DNA of 64,000 nucleotides. Origin: an uncultured Phycisphaeraceae bacterium (GTDB taxonomy: Bacteria > Planctomycetota > Phycisphaerae > UBA1845). This document shows positions 38,152 to 46,100 of this stretch, one piece after another. The stretch's first letter is position 1. Each line of letters opens with the position of its first letter. The translations under genes and the position numbers were made by a program. The stretch spans positions 14,334 through 78,333 of the forward strand of contig CAZBUJ010000010.1 in NCBI GenBank assembly GCA_964495075.1. Direction: 5' to 3'. The notes under the pieces were generated by a model that was not told the origin of the DNA, did no database searches, and saw only the letters and a list, made by a program, of their open reading frames with translations.

Positions 38152-38562
38152 ATGTGGACGGAAGTCGGAAAATTCGTCGGCGGCAAGGTCCTGACGGCCG
38201 TACTGGTCGTCGGCGTGTTTGCCAGTGGATTTTGGTTCTACAGGCATCCGGAGCAGCTCCAGGCCATCTGGGGCGTGCTGAAATCGGTGCTCGCCTGGCT
38301 GGGATTCGTGATTGTCCTGCCCTGGGCCCTCTTTTTCGTGGTGGCCTGGGTCCGGCGGTTCGACAGCAACGCCGCCGCCGCCGCCATGCTGATTGCGTAT
38401 CTGCTGCTGGACGTGCTGGCCGCCCTGTACCTCGCCGGCTGGCACGTGAGCGGGGCCCTGACTTGGACCGTGCTGGTCCTTGGCTTCCTTGCAGCAGGAG
38501 TTTATAATTTCCTGGCCTGTGAGACGATCGACAACCGGCTCGAATCGTCCGAGGGCCTGTAA
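38152..38562 (+). CDS. Four-TM small membrane protein, hypothetical; first gene of the ESCRT-III/Vps4-like cluster
   Basis: 136 aa with four clear hydrophobic helices. It ends 22 nt upstream of the kinase ORF. Confidence 0.5.
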   Translation: MWTEVGKFVGGKVLTAVLVVGVFASGFWFYRHPEQLQAIWGVLKSVLAWLGFVIVLPWALFFVVAWVRRFDSNAAAAAMLIAYLLLDVLAALYLAGWHVSGALTWTVLVLGFLAAGVYNFLACETIDNRLESSEGL

Positions 38563-38625
38563 CGCCCGCGGTGGGAACGACGGGTGGACAGGGCCGAGCC
38601 GGCACAGAATAGGGAGGACCTGGCG

Positions 38626-39645
38626 ATGGTCAGCCTGAAAGCAGGCGACCGAATCAGCAACTACCTGCTCGAGGAGCTGGTGGGGACGGGCAGCTTCGCC
38701 CAGGTGTGGAGAGCCCGCCATCATACCCTTGACAAGGTCGTCGCGATCAAAGTCCTGACCGACCAGCAGTACGTTCGGAACTTCCGGCAGGAAGGGGTGG
38801 TCGTCCACGGACTGCGGCACCCCAACATCGTGCGGGTCGAGGACATTGACGCGTACGATGATCCGCCGTATCTGATCATGGAACTTGTGGACGGGCCCTC
38901 CTTGCGGAGGGTGATCGATGCCCACCCGGACGGATTGCCCATCCCCGCGTGCCAGACGGTGTTTGGCGGGTTGTGCAAGGCCCTTTCGTTTGCCCACGAG
39001 AACGGTTTGATCCATCGGGACATCAAGCCGGCCAACATTCTGCTCAACCATCGCGAAGACGATCTGACCACGCTGACGGAGCAGGCGGTCAAGGTGGGCG
39101 ATTTCGGCCTGGGCCGCACCGGCGGCGTGACCACCGCATCCATCATGCAGTCGGGCAGCCTTCAGACGGAAGAGGGCCGAAGCATCGCCGGCACCCTCGC
39201 GTACATGTCGCCCGAGCAGAAGGAGGGCGGGGCCGTGGACGCGCGGAGTGACCTCTATGCGTGCGGCATTGTCCTGTTCGAGATGCTGACGGGCAGTCGA
39301 CCGGCCGGAGTGGAGATCCCCAGTTCCGTGCGTTCGGACGTCCCTCCGGTCCTGGACGAGGCCTTTCGTCGCTGCTACACGCGGCTGGATCGCCGTGTCG
39401 CCTCCGCCGGTGACCTGCTCGACATCGTGCGGCGTACCGGTCCGTCGGGGCCGGCGGCGGCCGGCGGGGGGCTGACGTGCCCGTCGTGCCACGGGCGCGT
39501 CGCCGGTGGAGACCAGTTCTGCACCCACTGCGGATACCAGTTGGTCGAGTCGGTGCCGCGCTGTCCGTCGTGCCACGCGTTTGTCAATCGCACTGACCGG
39601 TACTGCATTTTCTGTGGGACGCAGTTGCAGAGAACCGGCGAGTAG
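38626..39645 (+). CDS. Ser/Thr protein kinase with a C-terminal double zinc ribbon
   Basis: GTGSFAQVW, VAIKVL, HRDIKPANILL, DFGLG and TLAYMSPEQ. C-terminus CPSCHGRVAGGDQFCTHCG...CPSCHAFVNRTDRYCIFCG. The ATG at 38626 is preceded by GGGAGGA. The maximal ORF starts with GTG at 38584. Confidence 0.85.
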   Translation: MVSLKAGDRISNYLLEELVGTGSFAQVWRARHHTLDKVVAIKVLTDQQYVRNFRQEGVVVHGLRHPNIVRVEDIDAYDDPPYLIMELVDGPSLRRVIDAHPDGLPIPACQTVFGGLCKALSFAHENGLIHRDIKPANILLNHREDDLTTLTEQAVKVGDFGLGRTGGVTTASIMQSGSLQTEEGRSIAGTLAYMSPEQKEGGAVDARSDLYACGIVLFEMLTGSRPAGVEIPSSVRSDVPPVLDEAFRRCYTRLDRRVASAGDLLDIVRRTGPSGPAAAGGGLTCPSCHGRVAGGDQFCTHCGYQLVESVPRCPSCHAFVNRTDRYCIFCGTQLQRTGE

Positions 39646-39662
39646 CATCGGGATCGAGTGAG

Positions 39663-39920
39663 ATGGCGTCGTGGATCTTCATCATCTTCGCGATCGTCCT
39701 CGTGGCCGGGCTCGTGCTCACCGCGGTGCTCATGATCATGTTCATCGTTCATAGCGCCAAGCGGTCGTTGTCGGGACAATCGCCGCGCCAGCCGGCCGGC
39801 CCCGCCCGACGCGTTGGTGACCGACGGGCGAATGTTGACCGGATTTGTCCGAATGATCATTGTAGGCATCCGAACCGGTCGGATGCCCTCTATTGCGGCC
39901 AGTGCGGACGGCGGTTGTAA
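39663..39920 (+). CDS. Small single-TM protein with a C-terminal zinc ribbon
   Basis: 85 aa. TM helix WIFIIFAIVLVAGLVLTAVLMIMFIV, then CPNDHCRHPNRSDALYCGQCG. Confidence 0.5.
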   Translation: MASWIFIIFAIVLVAGLVLTAVLMIMFIVHSAKRSLSGQSPRQPAGPARRVGDRRANVDRICPNDHCRHPNRSDALYCGQCGRRL

Positions 39921-39923
39921 ACG

Positions 39924-41396
39924 TTGACCGATTCATCGAGCGGACAATCCGGCCGGCTGAACGCGGACGCGGCGGAGACCCTTCGGGTCGAGACGGAGTT
40001 TCTGTCCGGCGTGGAGGCCAACCTCGAGGCCGCCAAGGGCGGGCTGTTGCCCGGCGATCGCTGGCGTGCCGTGCGGGACGACGAGAGCGACGCCTTGCGG
40101 GCGATGATGGCCTCCCGGCGGATGTACGACCGCGAGTTGCTCAAGCAGCTCCCGCACAACCGGCGGATCGTGGTCCAGGGCTCGCAGCGTCGCTGGCTCC
40201 TGTTCCGCCGTCCGACCGAGGTGGCCATTGCCACCGTGGTGGCACCGTTTGAGCACTTGCTGACGCCCGAGTCGACCACCGCACCCCCGGTCACGCTCGG
40301 CGAGTTGACCGCCCACGTGCGCGGGCTGGTGGGCGAGGCCAAGGTGCCGCACGTTGTCGGCGTCTGTTCGCCCAGCGGATTCGCCGACGACGTGCGGGAG
40401 ACGCGCCTGGACATGCCGAACGTCACCATCGTGCTGGTCGAGCCGCGGGCGGGCGGCGGGTGGACCATCGCGACGCCCGGCGGAACCCAGGTCTCGGAGA
40501 ACATCCGAAAGCTGTACGACCCCGAGGCGATTAGCCAGAAGGTGACCCGGGCGCTGCGGGAGATCGAACACCGCCGGGTCGACCTGTTGACGGGCGGGCT
40601 GTCGGCCGCGTCGATCGCCGCGGGCACCGGGCTGCCCGAAGGAGTGGTCATGTTGGCCTTCAAGAAGGTGGCGGGCGAAGACACCGAGCTGCGCGTGACC
40701 CGCCGCTCGGGACATGTGGTGCTCTACCGCGGAGCGCCATCACGGTCGCAGGAGAGTAGTGCCATGAACGTCGTCGATCGCATCCGCGCACTGTTTTCAT
40801 CGGAAGGCGACGAAGCCCAGAAGATCAACGTGCTGGCCGAGCGACGGGCCAACCTCGCCCAACGCCGCGATCGGCTCTACGAGGACATCGGCAAGCTGGA
40901 AAAACGCGAGGCCGAGCTGCTCAATGAAGGACGGACGTCCAAATCGCAGGTCACCCGCCGGCGGCTGGCCGCCCAGCTGGGGCAGCTTCGCAAGGACATC
41001 GCGCGGCAGAACACGACCGCCAACATGCTGAATCAGCAGATCAACATCCTCAGCACCGACATCCACAACCTCACGCTGATCCAGCAAGGCCAGATGGCCA
41101 GCCTGCCCAATACCGAGGAACTGACCGAGAACGCGGTCAAAGCCGAGGAAATGCTCGAAACCCTCCGGGCCGACGCGGACATGGTCGCCGGCCTGGAAAC
41201 AGGACTGGCCGACGTGGCGACCAGCGACGAAGAACTGGCCATTCTCAAGGAGTTCGACGAGCCGGAGGCACCGAGGCAAACGGCCAGCGCCGACAGCGCG
41301 GCGGAACGCGAGGTGATGCGCGAGTTCGACCAACCGCAAGAAGAGGCGAGGCCAGAGAAGAACGCAGGGAAGCAACGGGCCGACCCGGAGGCGTGA
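39924..41396 (+). CDS. Fusion protein: unknown N-terminal domain (about 270 aa, possibly ending in a winged helix) plus a C-terminal ESCRT-III/Snf7-like helical domain
   Basis: The region from about aa 275 (MNVVDRIRALFSSEGDEAQKINVLAERRANLAQRRDRLYEDIGKLEKREAELLNEG...LRKDIARQNTTANMLNQQINILSTDIHNLTLIQQG...TENAVKAEEMLETLRADADMVAGLE) follows the Snf7 helix pattern, with a basic hairpin and then an acidic tail. The tail carries the repeated motifs LAILKEFDEPE and REVMREFDQPQ. Confidence 0.6.
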   Translation: MTDSSSGQSGRLNADAAETLRVETEFLSGVEANLEAAKGGLLPGDRWRAVRDDESDALRAMMASRRMYDRELLKQLPHNRRIVVQGSQRRWLLFRRPTEVAIATVVAPFEHLLTPESTTAPPVTLGELTAHVRGLVGEAKVPHVVGVCSPSGFADDVRETRLDMPNVTIVLVEPRAGGGWTIATPGGTQVSENIRKLYDPEAISQKVTRALREIEHRRVDLLTGGLSAASIAAGTGLPEGVVMLAFKKVAGEDTELRVTRRSGHVVLYRGAPSRSQESSAMNVVDRIRALFSSEGDEAQKINVLAERRANLAQRRDRLYEDIGKLEKREAELLNEGRTSKSQVTRRRLAAQLGQLRKDIARQNTTANMLNQQINILSTDIHNLTLIQQGQMASLPNTEELTENAVKAEEMLETLRADADMVAGLETGLADVATSDEELAILKEFDEPEAPRQTASADSAAEREVMREFDQPQEEARPEKNAGKQRADPEA

Positions 41397-41441: not shown

Positions 41442-42050
41442 ATGGACTTCTTCGACTGGCTGACCAAGCGAAAGAAACCGCTGTCCGAAATGTCGCGAGC
41501 CGAACTCCGGCGGCAGGAGCTGCTGCTGGAGAAAGACCGCACGCAACTGCTCAACAAGGTCACCAAGCTGGCCAAGGCCAAGCAGGAGCTGTTCGAACGC
41601 GGGGCCGGTGAGAAGACCCCCGAAGTCCGGCGCATCCTGGCCCAGGAGTTCGAACTGAAGACCACCGAGCAGCTCATGCTCTCCCGGCAACTCAATATCC
41701 GCAGCAAGGAGATGATGACCGTCTCCCGGCTGCGGATGCTCCGCGAGAACGCCGAGCGGGCGGCCAGTACCGGCGGCAAGCTCGGCCTGATCAACGAAAA
41801 GGACATGCTGCGCCTCGGACGCCTCATCGAGAACGACTCGATCAAGGCCGAAGCGTACCAGGAGCGTCTCGACGAGATCCTCTCGATGGGGGCGGAAGTG
41901 GACGAAGGGGCCGCCGGGCTGTCCGAGGCCGGTCAGTCCGTGCTCGACATCTGGGACAAGATGGACGCCGGCGCCATCGCGGACTCGCGGGAAGCGTTTG
42001 AGGAAGCGGATCGACGCGTCCGGGAGCAGGCCAGTCCGGCCGAGGAGTAG
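41442..42050 (+). CDS. ESCRT-III/Snf7 (PspA-superfamily)-like protein
   Basis: 202 aa. N-terminus MDFFDWLTKRKKP, a basic helical hairpin in the first half, and an acidic C-terminal half. The length and charge asymmetry are typical of ESCRT-III subunits. Confidence 0.65.
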   Translation: MDFFDWLTKRKKPLSEMSRAELRRQELLLEKDRTQLLNKVTKLAKAKQELFERGAGEKTPEVRRILAQEFELKTTEQLMLSRQLNIRSKEMMTVSRLRMLRENAERAASTGGKLGLINEKDMLRLGRLIENDSIKAEAYQERLDEILSMGAEVDEGAAGLSEAGQSVLDIWDKMDAGAIADSREAFEEADRRVREQASPAEE

Positions 42051-42056
42051 CCCATC

Positions 42057-42257
42057 ATGGCGGGATCGCAACCACTGCGTCGATCCGTCAACAACCGTGT
42101 CATCGCCGGGGTGGTGGGAGGCGTCGCCGAGCACTTCGGCCTGGACGCCACCCTGTTGAGGGTGGTCTACGTGCTGGCGAGTGTGCTGTCGGCGGCGTTC
42201 CCGGGTATGCTGGTCTACCTCATCTGCTGGTTGATCATCCCCGAGCGCGAGTATTAG
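42057..42257 (+). CDS. PspC-domain membrane protein
   Basis: 66 aa. LRRSVNNRVIAGVVGGVAEHFGLDATLLRVVYVLASVLSAAFPGMLVYLICWLIIPE is a canonical PspC domain. Confidence 0.8.
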   Translation: MAGSQPLRRSVNNRVIAGVVGGVAEHFGLDATLLRVVYVLASVLSAAFPGMLVYLICWLIIPEREY

Positions 42258-42322
42258 GCAACCAGACCGTCGTGCAGAAACCGGGGAGCCCCGGTCGTCC
42301 GCGCGAAACGCGAGCGGAACTC

Positions 42323-42922
42323 ATGGCACTATTCAAGTCAGCGGAAGAGCGGCGGATTGAACGCGACATCAAGATCCGGCAGGGCATCCGCCGGATCGAG
42401 AAGGCCATTCGCGAGCAGAACAAGTTCGCGGACGAGTTCATCAAGAACGCCCAGCGGGCCAGGAAAATGGGCGACAACGCCCAGTACAAGTTCATCCGCA
42501 ACTCGCTCAAGAAAACAGCCGCCGTCAAGCGGGCCCTCGAGCGGCAGTTGCTCTCGGTCAAAAACGCCCTGCTCATCAAGCGGCAGGCCGAGGCGTCCGC
42601 CGACTTCGCCCAGTGCATGGGCACGATGGCCACCGAGATCGGCAAGCTGTTTGGCGAGACCGACCTGCTCAAGACCCAGGCCGATTGGGAGAAGGCCATG
42701 GTCCAGTCGCAGTCGATGGAGGAACGGATGTCGATGTTCCTCGACACCATCGAGGACATCGCCGCCGAAGACACCGAGGCCGCTGAACTGGTCACCGACG
42801 AAGAGATCGACCGCATGATCGAGGCCGAACAGGAAGCCGAGCACCAGAAAGAGCTGGGAAAACTCGCGAACCTGCGAGCGGAGCTGGACTCCTTGAAAGG
42901 CGAAGGCGAGAAGCAGAAGTGA
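42323..42922 (+). CDS. ESCRT-III (Vps2/CHMP1-2-like) protein with a C-terminal amphipathic MIM-like helix
   Basis: 199 aa from the ATG at 42323 (MALFKSAEERRIERDIKIRQGIRRIEKAIREQNKF...). The order basic N-half, acidic C-half (DTIEDIAAEDTEAAELVTDEEIDRMIEAEQEAE), then terminal KLANLRAELDSLKG parallels CHMP-type subunits. The maximal ORF starts with GTG at 42272. Confidence 0.7.
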   Translation: MALFKSAEERRIERDIKIRQGIRRIEKAIREQNKFADEFIKNAQRARKMGDNAQYKFIRNSLKKTAAVKRALERQLLSVKNALLIKRQAEASADFAQCMGTMATEIGKLFGETDLLKTQADWEKAMVQSQSMEERMSMFLDTIEDIAAEDTEAAELVTDEEIDRMIEAEQEAEHQKELGKLANLRAELDSLKGEGEKQK

Positions 42923-43139: not shown

Positions 43140-44258
43140 ATGACCGTGTCCTTTTCAACCTTCGAGCGTCTCAAGACCAAGGGCGTCTGCGCCTACAAGA
43201 AGGGCGAGTACAACTCGGCCAAATCGTACCTCATCGAGGCCGCCGAATGCATGGTCGAGCTGGCGGAGAAGGCGCCATCGGCCGAAGTGCGCCGTCAGCG
43301 CGAGGAGATTGCGGCCGAGCTGATCGACCTGGCTCGCGATTGCGAACGATACAAGACCTCGCCACCCCGGCGGCGGCAGGCCGCACGGGAACGCGACGAC
43401 GACAGCGGCCGCGACGCCTCCGACTGGATCCTGAAGGAGAAGCCCGACTTCGGCTTCGACCATATCGCCGGCCTCGATGACGTCAAAGAGGAAATCCGGC
43501 TCAAGATGATCTACCCGTTCAACCACCCGGAACTCGCCCGGAAGTACGGGATCGGGGTCGGCGGCGGCGTGCTCCTCTACGGGCCGCCCGGCACGGGCAA
43601 AACCATGATGGCCAAGGCCGTCGCCCACGAGGTCGAGGCGACCTTCTTCGTCATCAGCCCCGCCCAGGTGCTGAGCAAATGGGTCGGCGAGGCGGAGCAG
43701 AACATCCAGAAACTCTTCGACGCCGCCACGAGTGAGGCGAAATCAGTCATCTTCATCGACGAGATCGAGGCCCTCGTCCCGCGGCGTAAGTCGGACGGGT
43801 CGAGCGTCATGCAACGCGTGGTCCCCCAGATCCTCCAGGAGCTGGAAGGATTCGACCGGAAGGGGGACCGGGCCCTATTATTTGTCGGAGCCACCAACAA
43901 GCCGTGGATGCTGGACGAGGCCATGCTGCGGCCCGGTCGGTTCGACACGCGAATCTACCTGGGCTTGCCCGACCCGCCGGCGTTGTACCGGCTATTGGAG
44001 ATCTACTTCGGCGACCGCCCGCTGTCCGACGACGTCGACTTCAGCCGCCTGTGCGACGGGCTCGACGGCTACAGCGGCGCCGACATCAAGAACATCGCGC
44101 AACAGGCGGCGGCCATCCCGTTTATGGAATCGGTGGCCGGAGCGGAGCCGCGCCCGATCGCGATGAAGGACATCGAAAAGGTGATCGAAAGTACCCCGCC
44201 TTCGGTCAAGCAATCGGACCTCGTGCGGTTCGAGAAGTTCGACAGCACGGGTCGATGA
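43140..44258 (+). CDS. MIT-domain AAA+ ATPase, Vps4-like (meiotic-clade AAA)
   Basis: 372 aa. An N-terminal three-helix, MIT-like region (KGVCAYKKGEYNSAKSYLIEAAECMVELAEKAPSAEVRRQREEIAAELIDLARDCERYK). Walker A GPPGTGKT, Walker B IFIDEIE, second region of homology ATNKPWMLDEAMLRPGRFD. The C-terminus STPPSVKQSDLVRFEKFDSTG resembles the Vps4/katanin/spastin tail. Confidence 0.85.
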   Translation: MTVSFSTFERLKTKGVCAYKKGEYNSAKSYLIEAAECMVELAEKAPSAEVRRQREEIAAELIDLARDCERYKTSPPRRRQAARERDDDSGRDASDWILKEKPDFGFDHIAGLDDVKEEIRLKMIYPFNHPELARKYGIGVGGGVLLYGPPGTGKTMMAKAVAHEVEATFFVISPAQVLSKWVGEAEQNIQKLFDAATSEAKSVIFIDEIEALVPRRKSDGSSVMQRVVPQILQELEGFDRKGDRALLFVGATNKPWMLDEAMLRPGRFDTRIYLGLPDPPALYRLLEIYFGDRPLSDDVDFSRLCDGLDGYSGADIKNIAQQAAAIPFMESVAGAEPRPIAMKDIEKVIESTPPSVKQSDLVRFEKFDSTGR

Positions 44259-44342
44259 CCCGGGGCGACACCGCAGACGAAAGGAAGCGCTTCGGCGGCG
44301 ACCAAGGTGACCGAACGGGCGACGGCGGCCGGAGGTAAGACG

Positions 44343-46100
44343 ATGACAGCCAGGTTCGATGCCAAGCGCCTGTTCAACGACGTGGACGCCGTGGCGGCCG
44401 TGGTGCCGGCATCGGAGGTCTTCTCGCTACTGACGCGTGCGCTTGATCTTCCGCCCGCGTGGGCGGCCCTCGTCGGCGACGTCCAAGGGGGGCAGCGGTT
44501 CTTCGCGCCCGGTGAGGTCGTACCGCGCGAAAACGCCGATGAGCTGCTCCTCGTACGCGTCACGCCGATCGACCTCCGCGTCCAGGAATCCGGCCTCGTC
44601 TCCCGCGACAAGTACCAGTTCGATGCGGAAGTCCGCGTCCGGGTCGCGCTCATCGCCGATCGCGGGGAACTCAGCTCGTTTCAGAACACCGCGCTGGGCA
44701 GCAAGCGGACGGCCACCAGCGACACGTTGGCCCAACTCCTCCGTCCCGACATCCGGTCCGCCCTCATCGACGTGGTCGGCGAGTCGAACGCGGAGACACT
44801 GATCACCGATGCCGACCGCCACACCTGGTCCGACCGGCTGAACGCGGCACTCAAGCCGGTCTGTTTCCGCGCCGGCCTGGCCGTCGACGCGGCCCCGTCG
44901 GTGCGCTTCGATTCGCCGACGTTCCGGCAGGTGCGCGTGTCGCAGGAACAGACGGCCCGCCATCAGGCCGAGCACCAGGCACGCCGACAACTGGAGCAGG
45001 CCATCGAAGCGGCACAGGTCGAACACCTCGACCACCTCGAGAGCCTGCTGGCCCGGTTGAAGGACGCCGCCGACTCCTCACCGGACGTGGAACTGCCGGA
45101 GCTCATGCGTACCTTCTCGCAACGAGAGCGCGGCGAGATGTACGAGGCGCTGTTCGCGGCGGATTCGGTGCAGGCCACACGGTGGATCGTGGTGGCCACC
45201 AGCGACGGGCTTTACTGGTTCGACCCGGCATCGCCGGGCGAACCGGCCCGCGCCGTCGACGTCGTGCCGGAGGTCGGCGGGATTCGAAGCGTGCACTGTC
45301 TGCGTTCGTCCGCGAGTGATCAGCGACTGTTGCTCGGCGCCGCCCGTGGCGTGTACGAGTTCGTGCCCGAGGGCACGGATCCGGCTGCGATCTATGTCGC
45401 CGATCGGCAGCGCGAGGTCCGCGGCGGGTTCAACGCGGTCGCGCTGGCCGGCCGCCAACTCTGGGCGTCGCACTCGGAACTCGGCCTGGTCCGCTGGGAT
45501 CGCACGGCGCCGGACCGACCGGAGCCCGTTCTCGAATCGCAAACCCAAGCCGCCCGCGCGGTGCGCGGCGTGCTGTTCCACGAAGGGAAGATCTGGGTCT
45601 CGCTCGACGACCGGGTCGCGTCGCTGCCCGCCGATGCTCCCGGGTCCGAGCCCGATTGGTATACCGGCAGCGAGGCGACGATCACGGCCCTGGCCGTCAC
45701 GCCGGGCGGCGTGCTGGGCGGCACCGCGGACGGCCGGATCCTGCACTGGCGGTTCGACGAACCCCGGGCCCCGCAGACGCTGCACACCGGAAACCGGCGT
45801 TCGGTCGAGTCGATCCACGTGCTCAGCACCGGCGGCGTCGATCGCCTCTTCTTCACCGACACGTCGCTGGCCGTCCACGCCCGGGTGCGGGGCGATTCGT
45901 TTACGTGCCGTTACGAGGCGGGCGGCCAGACGTTGCGGCGGGTGGAGGTCATGCCGGACCTGATCGTGGCCACCAATGACGTGCGCGATCGCCTGGTCTG
46001 CTGGTCGCCGTCCAGACCCGACCAGCCCCGCGCGGTCATCCCCGTCGCCCGGCTGACCCACCATTCCGTACAGGATGTCTGCCTCGTGCCGACGGCGTGA
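44343..46100 (+). CDS. SPFH/Band-7-like N-domain, coiled coil, and C-terminal beta-propeller-like domain protein
   Basis: The N-domain pattern (LLLVRVTPIDLRVQ...FDAEVRVRVALI...LAQLLRPDIRSALIDVVGESNAETLIT...AGLAVDAAPSVRFDSPTF) resembles SPFH. It is followed by a Gln/Glu/Arg-rich coiled coil and about 300 aa of repetitive beta-rich sequence. An alternative GTG start lies at 44307. Confidence 0.55.
   Translation: MTARFDAKRLFNDVDAVAAVVPASEVFSLLTRALDLPPAWAALVGDVQGGQRFFAPGEVVPRENADELLLVRVTPIDLRVQESGLVSRDKYQFDAEVRVRVALIADRGELSSFQNTALGSKRTATSDTLAQLLRPDIRSALIDVVGESNAETLITDADRHTWSDRLNAALKPVCFRAGLAVDAAPSVRFDSPTFRQVRVSQEQTARHQAEHQARRQLEQAIEAAQVEHLDHLESLLARLKDAADSSPDVELPELMRTFSQRERGEMYEALFAADSVQATRWIVVATSDGLYWFDPASPGEPARAVDVVPEVGGIRSVHCLRSSASDQRLLLGAARGVYEFVPEGTDPAAIYVADRQREVRGGFNAVALAGRQLWASHSELGLVRWDRTAPDRPEPVLESQTQAARAVRGVLFHEGKIWVSLDDRVASLPADAPGSEPDWYTGSEATITALAVTPGGVLGGTADGRILHWRFDEPRAPQTLHTGNRRSVESIHVLSTGGVDRLFFTDTSLAVHARVRGDSFTCRYEAGGQTLRRVEVMPDLIVATNDVRDRLVCWSPSRPDQPRAVIPVARLTHHSVQDVCLVPTA

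Follow-up and report, generated by a model that had tools for sequence, protein, structure and literature searches.

Can a bacterium encode an ESCRT-III subunit together with the Vps4-like ATPase that would disassemble it? This question is raised by a locus of an uncultured Phycisphaeraceae bacterium (Planctomycetota) carried by the 64,000-nucleotide stretch of DNA analysed here (assembly GCA_964495075.1, contig CAZBUJ010000010.1, positions 14,334 to 78,333 of the forward strand; hereafter the window). In this locus, the open reading frame (ORF) at 42323-42922 on the + strand, referred to below as the target, is followed by the gene of an AAA ATPase. According to recent reviews bacteria lack such a pairing, and a Vps4-like ATPase is stated to appear absent from them (PMC7619361); on that view bacterial ESCRT-III amounts to PspA and Vipp1 without an unfoldase. 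An earlier examination of this DNA from its letters alone (the sequence-only reading) had described the target product as a CHMP-like subunit with a strong charge asymmetry and a C-terminal helix partially matching the MIT-interacting motif 1 (MIM1), and had assigned an MIT-AAA ATPase to the next gene. Our analysis confirms the observation and supports its interpretation, every element that could be checked having held. The features on which the argument is built are the following, with positions given within the window and the evidence in brackets.

42323..42922, + strand: predicted ESCRT-III (Snf7/CHMP superfamily) subunit, 199 amino acids plus stop (translation, family profile, Pfam Snf7 in relatives).
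42323..42652, + strand: basic N-terminal half of the target with the conserved MxLFKS, helix 7-49 and long helix 52-110, the predicted alpha1 / alpha2-3 hairpin (AlphaFold2, charge, orthologues).
42665..42850, + strand: predicted helix 115-149 (alpha4), acidic linker and DEEIDRMIEAE segment (alpha5-like) (AlphaFold2, charge, profile alignment).
42851..42901, + strand: C-terminal MIM1-like helix ELGKLANLRAELDSLKG (residues 177-193), then EGEKQK (orthologue conservation, family motif).
43140..44258, + strand: Vps4/CdvC-like AAA ATPase of 372 amino acids (Pfam AAA and Vps4_C, NCBIfam CdvC as best match).
43140..43358, + strand: predicted MIT-fold three-helix bundle of the ATPase (AlphaFold2, Foldseek).

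Translation of the target ORF yields 199 residues and a stop codon and is identical to the product quoted in the sequence-only reading. A longer ORF starting with GTG at 42272 is an alternative; the ATG at 42323 is nevertheless the supported start, because MxLFKS begins all homologues at this point and independent gene calls in two other assemblies also give 199 residues. The whole protein is 88% conserved among 39 close orthologues, in which L3, F4 and K5 are invariant. The basic N-terminus and acidic C-terminal part described earlier are borne out, since residues 1-90 contain 25 Lys and Arg versus 11 Asp and Glu (net charge +14, isoelectric point 11.0) and residues 136-176 contain 2 versus 15 (net charge -13, isoelectric point 4.05). 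An asymmetry this large arises in only about one in 10,000 permutations of the residues of the target (p ~1e-4), and a basic N-terminal half followed by an acidic C-terminal half is what is expected of an ESCRT-III protein.

To which family does this protein belong? Since the single-sequence searches of Pfam, NCBIfam and the PDB came back empty, a diverse family profile was needed. In a protein collection clustered at 90%, 1,662 relatives of the target are found at E <= 0.001; none bears an informative name, most being unnamed or called 'hypothetical protein' and three carrying an evidently spurious JGI label, and wherever an organism is given, the source is a Phycisphaerae or Planctomycetota metagenome-assembled genome. 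When cluster representatives at 50% identity were searched exhaustively, 301 clusters were found at E <= 0.001, many of them only 23-40% identical to the target. The family profile was made from 55 diverse full-length relatives that are 23-63% identical to the target, with a mean column identity of 31%. Against all PDB sequences, its best match is CHMP2A (E 1.7e-5), profile positions 12-147 corresponding in register to residues 9-144 of the chain, followed by four CHMP3 entries (9e-4 to 3.6e-3) and by CdvB, CdvB2, Snf7 and CHMP1B. The ten best matches are all ESCRT-III proteins aligned in a common N-to-C register, and the leading ones, of the Vps2/Vps24 class, cover essentially the whole core. 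Furthermore, the 'sdeeidrli' segment of the family aligns with EMEIDRIL of CHMP3. When the 55 relatives were scanned member by member, Pfam Snf7 (PF03357) was matched by 33 of them (best E 1.1e-7) and any other Pfam family by three at most, and a precomputed Snf7 annotation is present on 15 of the 120 relatives listed, including some divergent ones. Similarity to Snf7 is found at the level of the family profile and not with the target sequence alone.

The predicted fold agrees with this assignment. The AlphaFold2 model of the target contains helices at residues 7-49, 52-110, 115-149 and 159-198, in the helix order of ESCRT-III, and thus displays the hairpin plus shorter helices expected of a protein of about 200 residues. 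The predicted local distance difference test score (pLDDT) is 76-86 in the hairpin and falls below 50 in segment 143-152. Used as a Foldseek query, this model ranks CdvB and CHMP2A-CHMP3 first, with a probability of up to 1.00 and template modelling (TM) scores of 0.50/0.67. We conclude, mainly from the profile evidence and with the fold in a supportive role, that the target is a member of the Snf7/CHMP/CdvB branch within the ESCRT-III superfamily, which agrees with the CHMP-like identity first proposed.

Does the protein carry a helix that an MIT domain could recognise? MIM1 is a C-terminal helix with the consensus (D/E)xxLxxRLxxL(K/R). The tail KLANLRAELDSLKG of the target (residues 180-193) bears a stripe of leucines in the last helix (L181, L184, L188 and L191) followed by K192; L184, L188, L191 and K192 fit the consensus, i.e. 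four of the six defined positions, as had been estimated. The Arg is found at +1 (R185) and not at +3, and a Leu (L181) replaces the acid at position 0. The hydrophobic moment over residues 181-192 is 0.29-0.33, a value that we take, as a lead only, to be within the range of MIM1 helices; the last helix, which had been called amphipathic, is moderately but not strongly so. The tail pattern, which the sequence-only reading proposed to follow in orthologues, is conserved both in close relatives and, without the Arg and Lys/Arg positions, as a family motif. Indeed, L181, L184, A186, E187, L191 and K192 are invariant in the 39 orthologues and R185 is nearly so, and the motif [DE]xx[ILVM]xxx[ILVM]xx[ILVM] is present within the last 35 residues of 34 of the 61 full-length family representatives, versus 4.2 +/- 2.1 for shuffled tails (maximum 12 in 200 shuffles), an enrichment of about 8-fold.

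This motif ends a median of 8 residues before the C-terminus and is shared by a family that is only about 31% identical overall, most of its members ending in a helix such as LDAEISKGIKQIEDELKG or IDNEIDQGLTEIEKELG. The family tails retain the acid and the three hydrophobic positions of MIM1 with their 3-4-3 spacing, and their location is that of MIM1, the very end of the protein behind a flexible acidic linker, with conservation among orthologues. Because the acid and the hydrophobic residues are kept while the Arg and Lys/Arg are not, the strict pattern being found in only 2 of the 61 representatives, MIM1-like and non-canonical is, as judged from the residues, the right description of this tail, and the one initially given was accurate. 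MIM1 is characteristic of the Vps2/24/46 class and is lacking in crenarchaeal CdvB, and Asgard homologues possess Leu/Ile-rich MIM1-like helices (PMC7240154).

The downstream gene had been proposed to encode an MIT-AAA ATPase, and both parts of this proposal are supported, AAA by Pfam and MIT by the predicted fold. The protein comprises one Pfam AAA domain (1.9e-41) and a Vps4_C helix (30.1 bits, above the Pfam cut-off of 21.3), that is, the single cassette with a C-terminal Vps4_C helix of a Vps4-like enzyme. Its best NCBIfam match is CdvC, with 246.7 bits over residues 13-367, a score far below the equivalog cut-off of 650. In a PDB search, Cdc48/p97 comes first by total score because it has two cassettes; with the C-terminal lid region alone, p97 leads and katanin as well as archaeal and yeast Vps4 stand lower. 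The pore loop SKWVGE, read by eye, is presumably Vps4-like, which we treat as a lead. The AlphaFold2 model of residues 1-87 (pLDDT 85 overall, above 90 in the core) is a three-helix bundle (helices 5-21, 24-43 and 48-73), whose top Foldseek matches are almost all MIT domains, with TM scores of 0.7-0.86 and root-mean-square deviations of 1.1-1.5 A over about 69 residues. They include the MIT domains of VPS4B, VPS4A, yeast Vps4, Sulfolobus solfataricus Vps4, katanin p60, MITD1, NRBF2, calpain-7 and chitin synthase. The ATPase is thus predicted to have an N-terminal MIT domain at the level of the fold; the only MIT match at the sequence level is 2mpk (E 0.088). Since an MIT-fold bundle, a single AAA cassette and a Vps4_C helix are combined, the architecture is Vps4-like: MIT domain, linker, one AAA cassette and C-terminal helix.

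Are the two genes coupled beyond this genome? We gathered the loci of 80 species-level genomes (GTDB representatives) whose target relatives are 70-89% identical; these genomes are labelled Phycisphaerae, Planctomycetota or uncultured bacterium, apart from one Alphaproteobacteria. The latter, a 558-kb contig named 'Alphaproteobacteria bacterium' (L027, JANQQE010000024.1), carries a locus that is fully syntenic with those of Phycisphaerae and 79% identical, and the bin is probably mislabelled. The gene order in Phycisphaerae is membrane protein, Ser/Thr kinase, small zinc-ribbon protein (not always present), 490-residue protein, 202-residue protein, PspC, target, ATPase and SPFH protein. In 57 of the 80 loci the ATPase gene is found downstream of the target, on the same strand, with a gap of at most 300 bp in 28 of these 57; as 12 of the remaining 23 lack enough downstream sequence for a decision, the linkage is observed in 57 of 68 informative loci. 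The gap is 217 bp in the window, where we found no terminator-like or promoter-like site on the + strand, and varies from 9 bp to 3.7 kb in other species. The locus does not stand out from the window in GC content, and the homologous loci sit in multi-megabase bacterial chromosomes.

Coupling extends to three divergent Planctomycetota loci (L081, L082 and L083), in which the target is about 40% identical to the lead sequence of the family profile. Their gene order is helical protein, helical protein, Snf7-like protein, MIT-like AAA, protein of about 620-670 residues and membrane protein, so that the Snf7-like to AAA order is kept in all three. Each also has a Ser/Thr kinase gene, which in two of them comes right behind that of the membrane protein and in the third is encoded on the other strand, and the PspC family is listed for no gene of these three loci. 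Since they keep the Snf7-like and AAA genes without a listed PspC, the Snf7-like gene and the ATPase form the constant core, PspC appearing to be an addition within Phycisphaerae.

We therefore propose, with a probability of about 0.6, that the target is a Snf7-branch ESCRT-III subunit, distinct from PspA/Vipp1, that is disassembled by the adjacent MIT-AAA ATPase through its C-terminal tail. The basic hairpin (helices 7-49 and 52-110), with its MxLF N-terminus, would bind the cytoplasmic membrane and polymerise. The acidic C-terminal half, comprising alpha4 and the alpha5-like DEEIDRMI segment, may fold back on the hairpin when the protein is soluble, or touch neighbours in the polymer. The terminal helix with its Leu/Ile stripe, displayed on the polymer, would then recruit the MIT-fold domain of the downstream ATPase, and the latter would pull subunits out of the polymer in an ATP-driven manner, resulting in remodelling or recycling.

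The remaining conserved genes of the locus must be presented before the alternatives are weighed.

38152..39920, + strand: upstream conserved genes, namely a 136-residue membrane protein (38152-38562), a Ser/Thr kinase ending in a double zinc ribbon (38584-39645) and a small membrane protein ending in a zinc ribbon (39663-39920) (Pfam Pkinase 1.4e-39, DZR, synteny).
39924..41396, + strand: conserved 490-residue protein with a coiled-coil C-terminal half, syntenic partner (68 of 80 loci).
41442..42050, + strand: conserved 202-residue helical protein, syntenic partner (70 of 80 loci; without Pfam or PDB relation).
42057..42257, + strand: PspC-domain membrane protein of 66 residues, directly upstream of the target (Pfam PspC 1.7e-22; 50 of 80 Phycisphaerae loci).
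44307..46100, + strand: 597-residue protein following the ATPase, its N-terminal region of the SPFH/Band-7 type (Pfam Band_7 4.6e-07, 30.5 bits, cut-off 23.6; 46 of 80 loci).

By eye only, the 202-residue protein and the C-terminal half of the 490-residue protein (40761-41396) are long, charged, helical and Snf7-like. Both were considered as possible ESCRT-III paralogues, but sequence comparison lends this impression no support: hhalign against the target family gives a probability of 0.9% for the former and 3.3% for the latter, and neither has a Pfam Snf7 match or an ESCRT-III match in the PDB. Cross-searches of both proteins with hidden Markov models against their positional equivalents in the divergent loci found nothing. 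The long C-terminal part of the 597-residue protein contains repeated Gly/Trp-containing segments, which suggest a beta-propeller; one of its positional equivalents of 620-670 residues has a very weak match to the WDR11 propeller.

Several further observations concern the loci of other species. Inserts of 0.3-3.7 kb separate the target and ATPase genes in about half of the species, such as that at L014:8610-10366, which holds unrelated ORFs for proteins of 241 and 124 residues, and this intergenic spot seems to be insertion-prone. A second AAA ATPase of 395-428 residues is encoded directly upstream of the Snf7-like gene in two of the divergent loci (L081:6787-7974 and L082:6709-7995), so that AAA ATPases are encoded there on both sides of this gene; the upstream ATPase gives a weak Vps4_C match and, by eye, its second region of homology (SRFEKK/SRFDKK) is closer to Vps4 than that of the downstream ATPase. 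The kinases of the divergent loci have an RDD domain or no extra domain, and not a zinc ribbon. Their membrane proteins comprise 284-310 residues (L081:11641-12495, L082:11831-12763 and L083:10613-11467), and the C-terminal transmembrane segment GFLAAGVYNFLAC of the 136-residue membrane protein of the window resembles, by eye only, the C-terminus of those of the divergent loci, GFLAAAIYNYIAC. Because these segments look alike, a membrane component seems to travel with the module. Finally, four distant relatives of the target from the search of cluster representatives (P0227, P0230, P0239 and P0258; 443-511 residues, 26-32% identical over residues ~7-170, to 192 in P0258) possess at their C-terminus an ATPase domain of the FtsK/SpoIIIE family (Pfam E 1.6e-26 to 1.7e-09), the Snf7-like domain being therefore fused to an FtsK-type ATPase.

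A number of results weigh against the proposal that the target is disassembled by the adjacent ATPase through its tail. Taken alone, the target has no match in Pfam, in NCBIfam or among the solved structures of the PDB, and its score with Pfam Snf7 is 11 bits (E 0.34) for a cut-off of 27.3. The HMMER match of the profile to CHMP2A includes a large composition-bias term, the pLDDT of the target model is 69 overall, and the Foldseek E-values obtained with the whole-protein model are weak (>= 0.08). The tail of the target does not fit the strict MIM1 consensus, no more than all but two of the 61 representatives do, and in the family the MIM1 Arg (position 6) is mostly Gly and the Lys/Arg (position 11) mostly Glu. 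Regarding the ATPase, no Pfam MIT was detected by sequence models, and removal of its N-terminal 94 residues leaves CdvC a narrow lead (231.7) over PAN (221) and CDC48 (217.8). Its second region of homology, read by eye as LRPGRFD, is one that we take to be Cdc48/PAN-like and not of the Vps4-like RRF-K type. Moreover, no ATPase gene is found nearby in 11 loci for which about 8 kb of sequence is available downstream.

The likeliest alternative accepts the target as an ESCRT-III homologue and assigns another role to its terminal helix, which would serve in polymer contacts or autoinhibition, or bind the 202-residue, 490-residue or SPFH protein, while the ATPase would recognise the polymer in some other way. 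The Arg and Lys/Arg positions of the tail, which the family does not conserve, leave room for such a role, crenarchaeal CdvB relies on MIM2 without MIM1 (PMC7240154), and MIT domains have at least seven partner-binding modes (PMC9477494). However, the tail motif occupies the extreme C-terminus after an acidic linker, just as MIM1 does in Vps2/24/46-class subunits, and throughout a very divergent family it keeps the acid as well as the 3-4-3 spacing of hydrophobic residues. An MIT-fold domain is, in addition, encoded next door in all the lineages examined, and Asgard MIM1-like helices likewise swap Leu for Ile (PMC7240154). We regard this alternative as possible, though rather unlikely.

A second alternative would make the target an envelope-stress effector of the PspA/Vipp1 type acting with the adjacent PspC, the AAA ATPase being an unrelated neighbour or a chaperone. 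The gene context invites this view: the PspC gene lies directly upstream of the target and recurs in Phycisphaerae, and SPFH proteins such as the one encoded downstream accompany PspA in other bacteria (PMC10936438, PMC11237479). Furthermore, PspA and ESCRT-III share one superfamily fold, and some of their functions may overlap. The profile evidence goes the other way, as no PspA or Vipp1 chain is found among the PDB matches of the family even to E 10, where CHMP, CdvB and Snf7 are, and PspA_IM30 (PF04012) is absent from the Pfam families listed for the 55 relatives, in which Snf7 recurs. The three divergent Planctomycetota loci also retain the Snf7-like gene beside the AAA gene and have no listed PspC. 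A PspA/Vipp1 nature was accordingly rejected as the primary identity of the target, and this second alternative seems to us improbable. A third view, that the likeness to ESCRT-III stems from coiled-coil composition in a generic charged helical protein without specific relation to it, could be argued from the failure of the target alone to match any curated model, from the large bias term and from the BAR-domain and other long helical proteins that Foldseek lists at E-values similar to those of the ESCRT-III matches, but it is very hard to reconcile with ten best structural matches in a consistent N-to-C register, with the recurrence of Snf7 in the member-by-member scan and the precomputed annotations, with the joint presence of an N-terminal MxLF, an alpha5-like segment containing EIDR and a Leu helix at the C-terminus, and with the conserved linkage to the MIT-AAA ATPase.

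How does a Snf7-branch subunit paired with an MIT-AAA ATPase compare with known systems? Like CHMP2A and CHMP3, the target comprises about 200 residues, with a basic hairpin, an acidic C-terminal half, an EIDR-type alpha5 and a Leu-rich end helix of MIM1 spacing, and like them it would have an MIT-AAA ATPase as partner, here predicted from gene linkage. On the other hand, its host is bacterial, its sequence identity to these proteins is only about 15-20%, and the Arg and Lys/Arg positions of their MIM1 are not retained, the target having R at +1 and K at position 11 and the family consensus Gly and Glu. Unlike in eukaryotic ESCRT systems, no ESCRT-I or ESCRT-II components were seen, the neighbours being PspC, an SPFH protein and a Ser/Thr kinase. 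The archaeal Cdv system (CdvB with CdvC/Vps4) offers a prokaryotic operon with an ESCRT-III homologue and an MIT-AAA ATPase, and the likeness extends to CdvC as best NCBIfam match of the ATPase and to CdvB and CdvB2 among the profile and fold matches of the target; differences reside in the absence of any CdvA found and in the score of the ATPase, well under the CdvC equivalog cut-off (246.7 vs 650). Moreover, CdvB binds CdvC via a proline-rich MIM2 and a winged-helix extension (PMC7240154), whereas the target family has a helical MIM1-like tail. With PspA/Vipp1 the target shares superfamily and fold class, as well as a PspC/SPFH association typical of Psp systems (PMC11237479). It differs by the lack of similarity of the family to PspA_IM30 or Vipp1 at the profile level and by the nature of the ATPase, PspF, the partner of PspA, being an NtrC-type transcription factor and not an MIT-AAA unfoldase (PMC7619361).

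A survey has recorded proteins of the Snf7 clade that occur sporadically in bacteria near AAA+ ATPases, as well as Vps4-like ATPases transferred to bacteria, and has proposed ATP-dependent membrane remodelling (PMC11237479). The cases described are of a different kind: a TPR/6TM gene takes the place of snf7 beside a Vps4-like ATPase, or Snf7 has a transmembrane segment and lies in ABC-transporter operons, or it is fused to an RND transporter. They include neither Planctomycetes nor the combination of a MIM1-like tail, MIT-AAA ATPase, PspC, SPFH protein and kinase (PMC11237479). In the full-text literature searched, which leaves subscription-only papers outside, we found no description of a Planctomycetota Snf7-like/MIT-AAA system.

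What, then, would this system do in the cell? Judging from its PspC, SPFH and kinase neighbours, it may serve in membrane surveillance, maintenance or repair; SPFH proteins also have links with bacterial PspA and, in archaea, with some ESCRT systems (PMC10936438). A more radical possibility is that the Snf7-like protein and the MIT-AAA ATPase, with their helical, membrane, SPFH and kinase partners, form a Cdv-like constriction core that drives or completes division in Planctomycetota. All planctomycetes lack FtsZ, and Phycisphaerae divide by binary fission, the driver of which is unknown (PMC6952346). We hold a role in division to be a long shot at this stage.

The locus pairs a predicted Snf7-branch subunit bearing a MIM1-like tail with an MIT-AAA gene, and this coupling is maintained across a bacterial class and in deeply divergent Planctomycetota. 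If the proposed reading is true, bacteria too would possess ATP-driven ESCRT-III remodelling. The origin of MIM1-MIT recognition, which has been thought an Asgard/eukaryote trait because crenarchaeal CdvB has no MIM1 (PMC7240154), would be open again. Furthermore, the system would represent, for a phylum without FtsZ (PMC6952346), a concrete and testable candidate to carry out membrane scission or repair and, should the division role prove true, a bacterial ESCRT-III/Vps4 division system.

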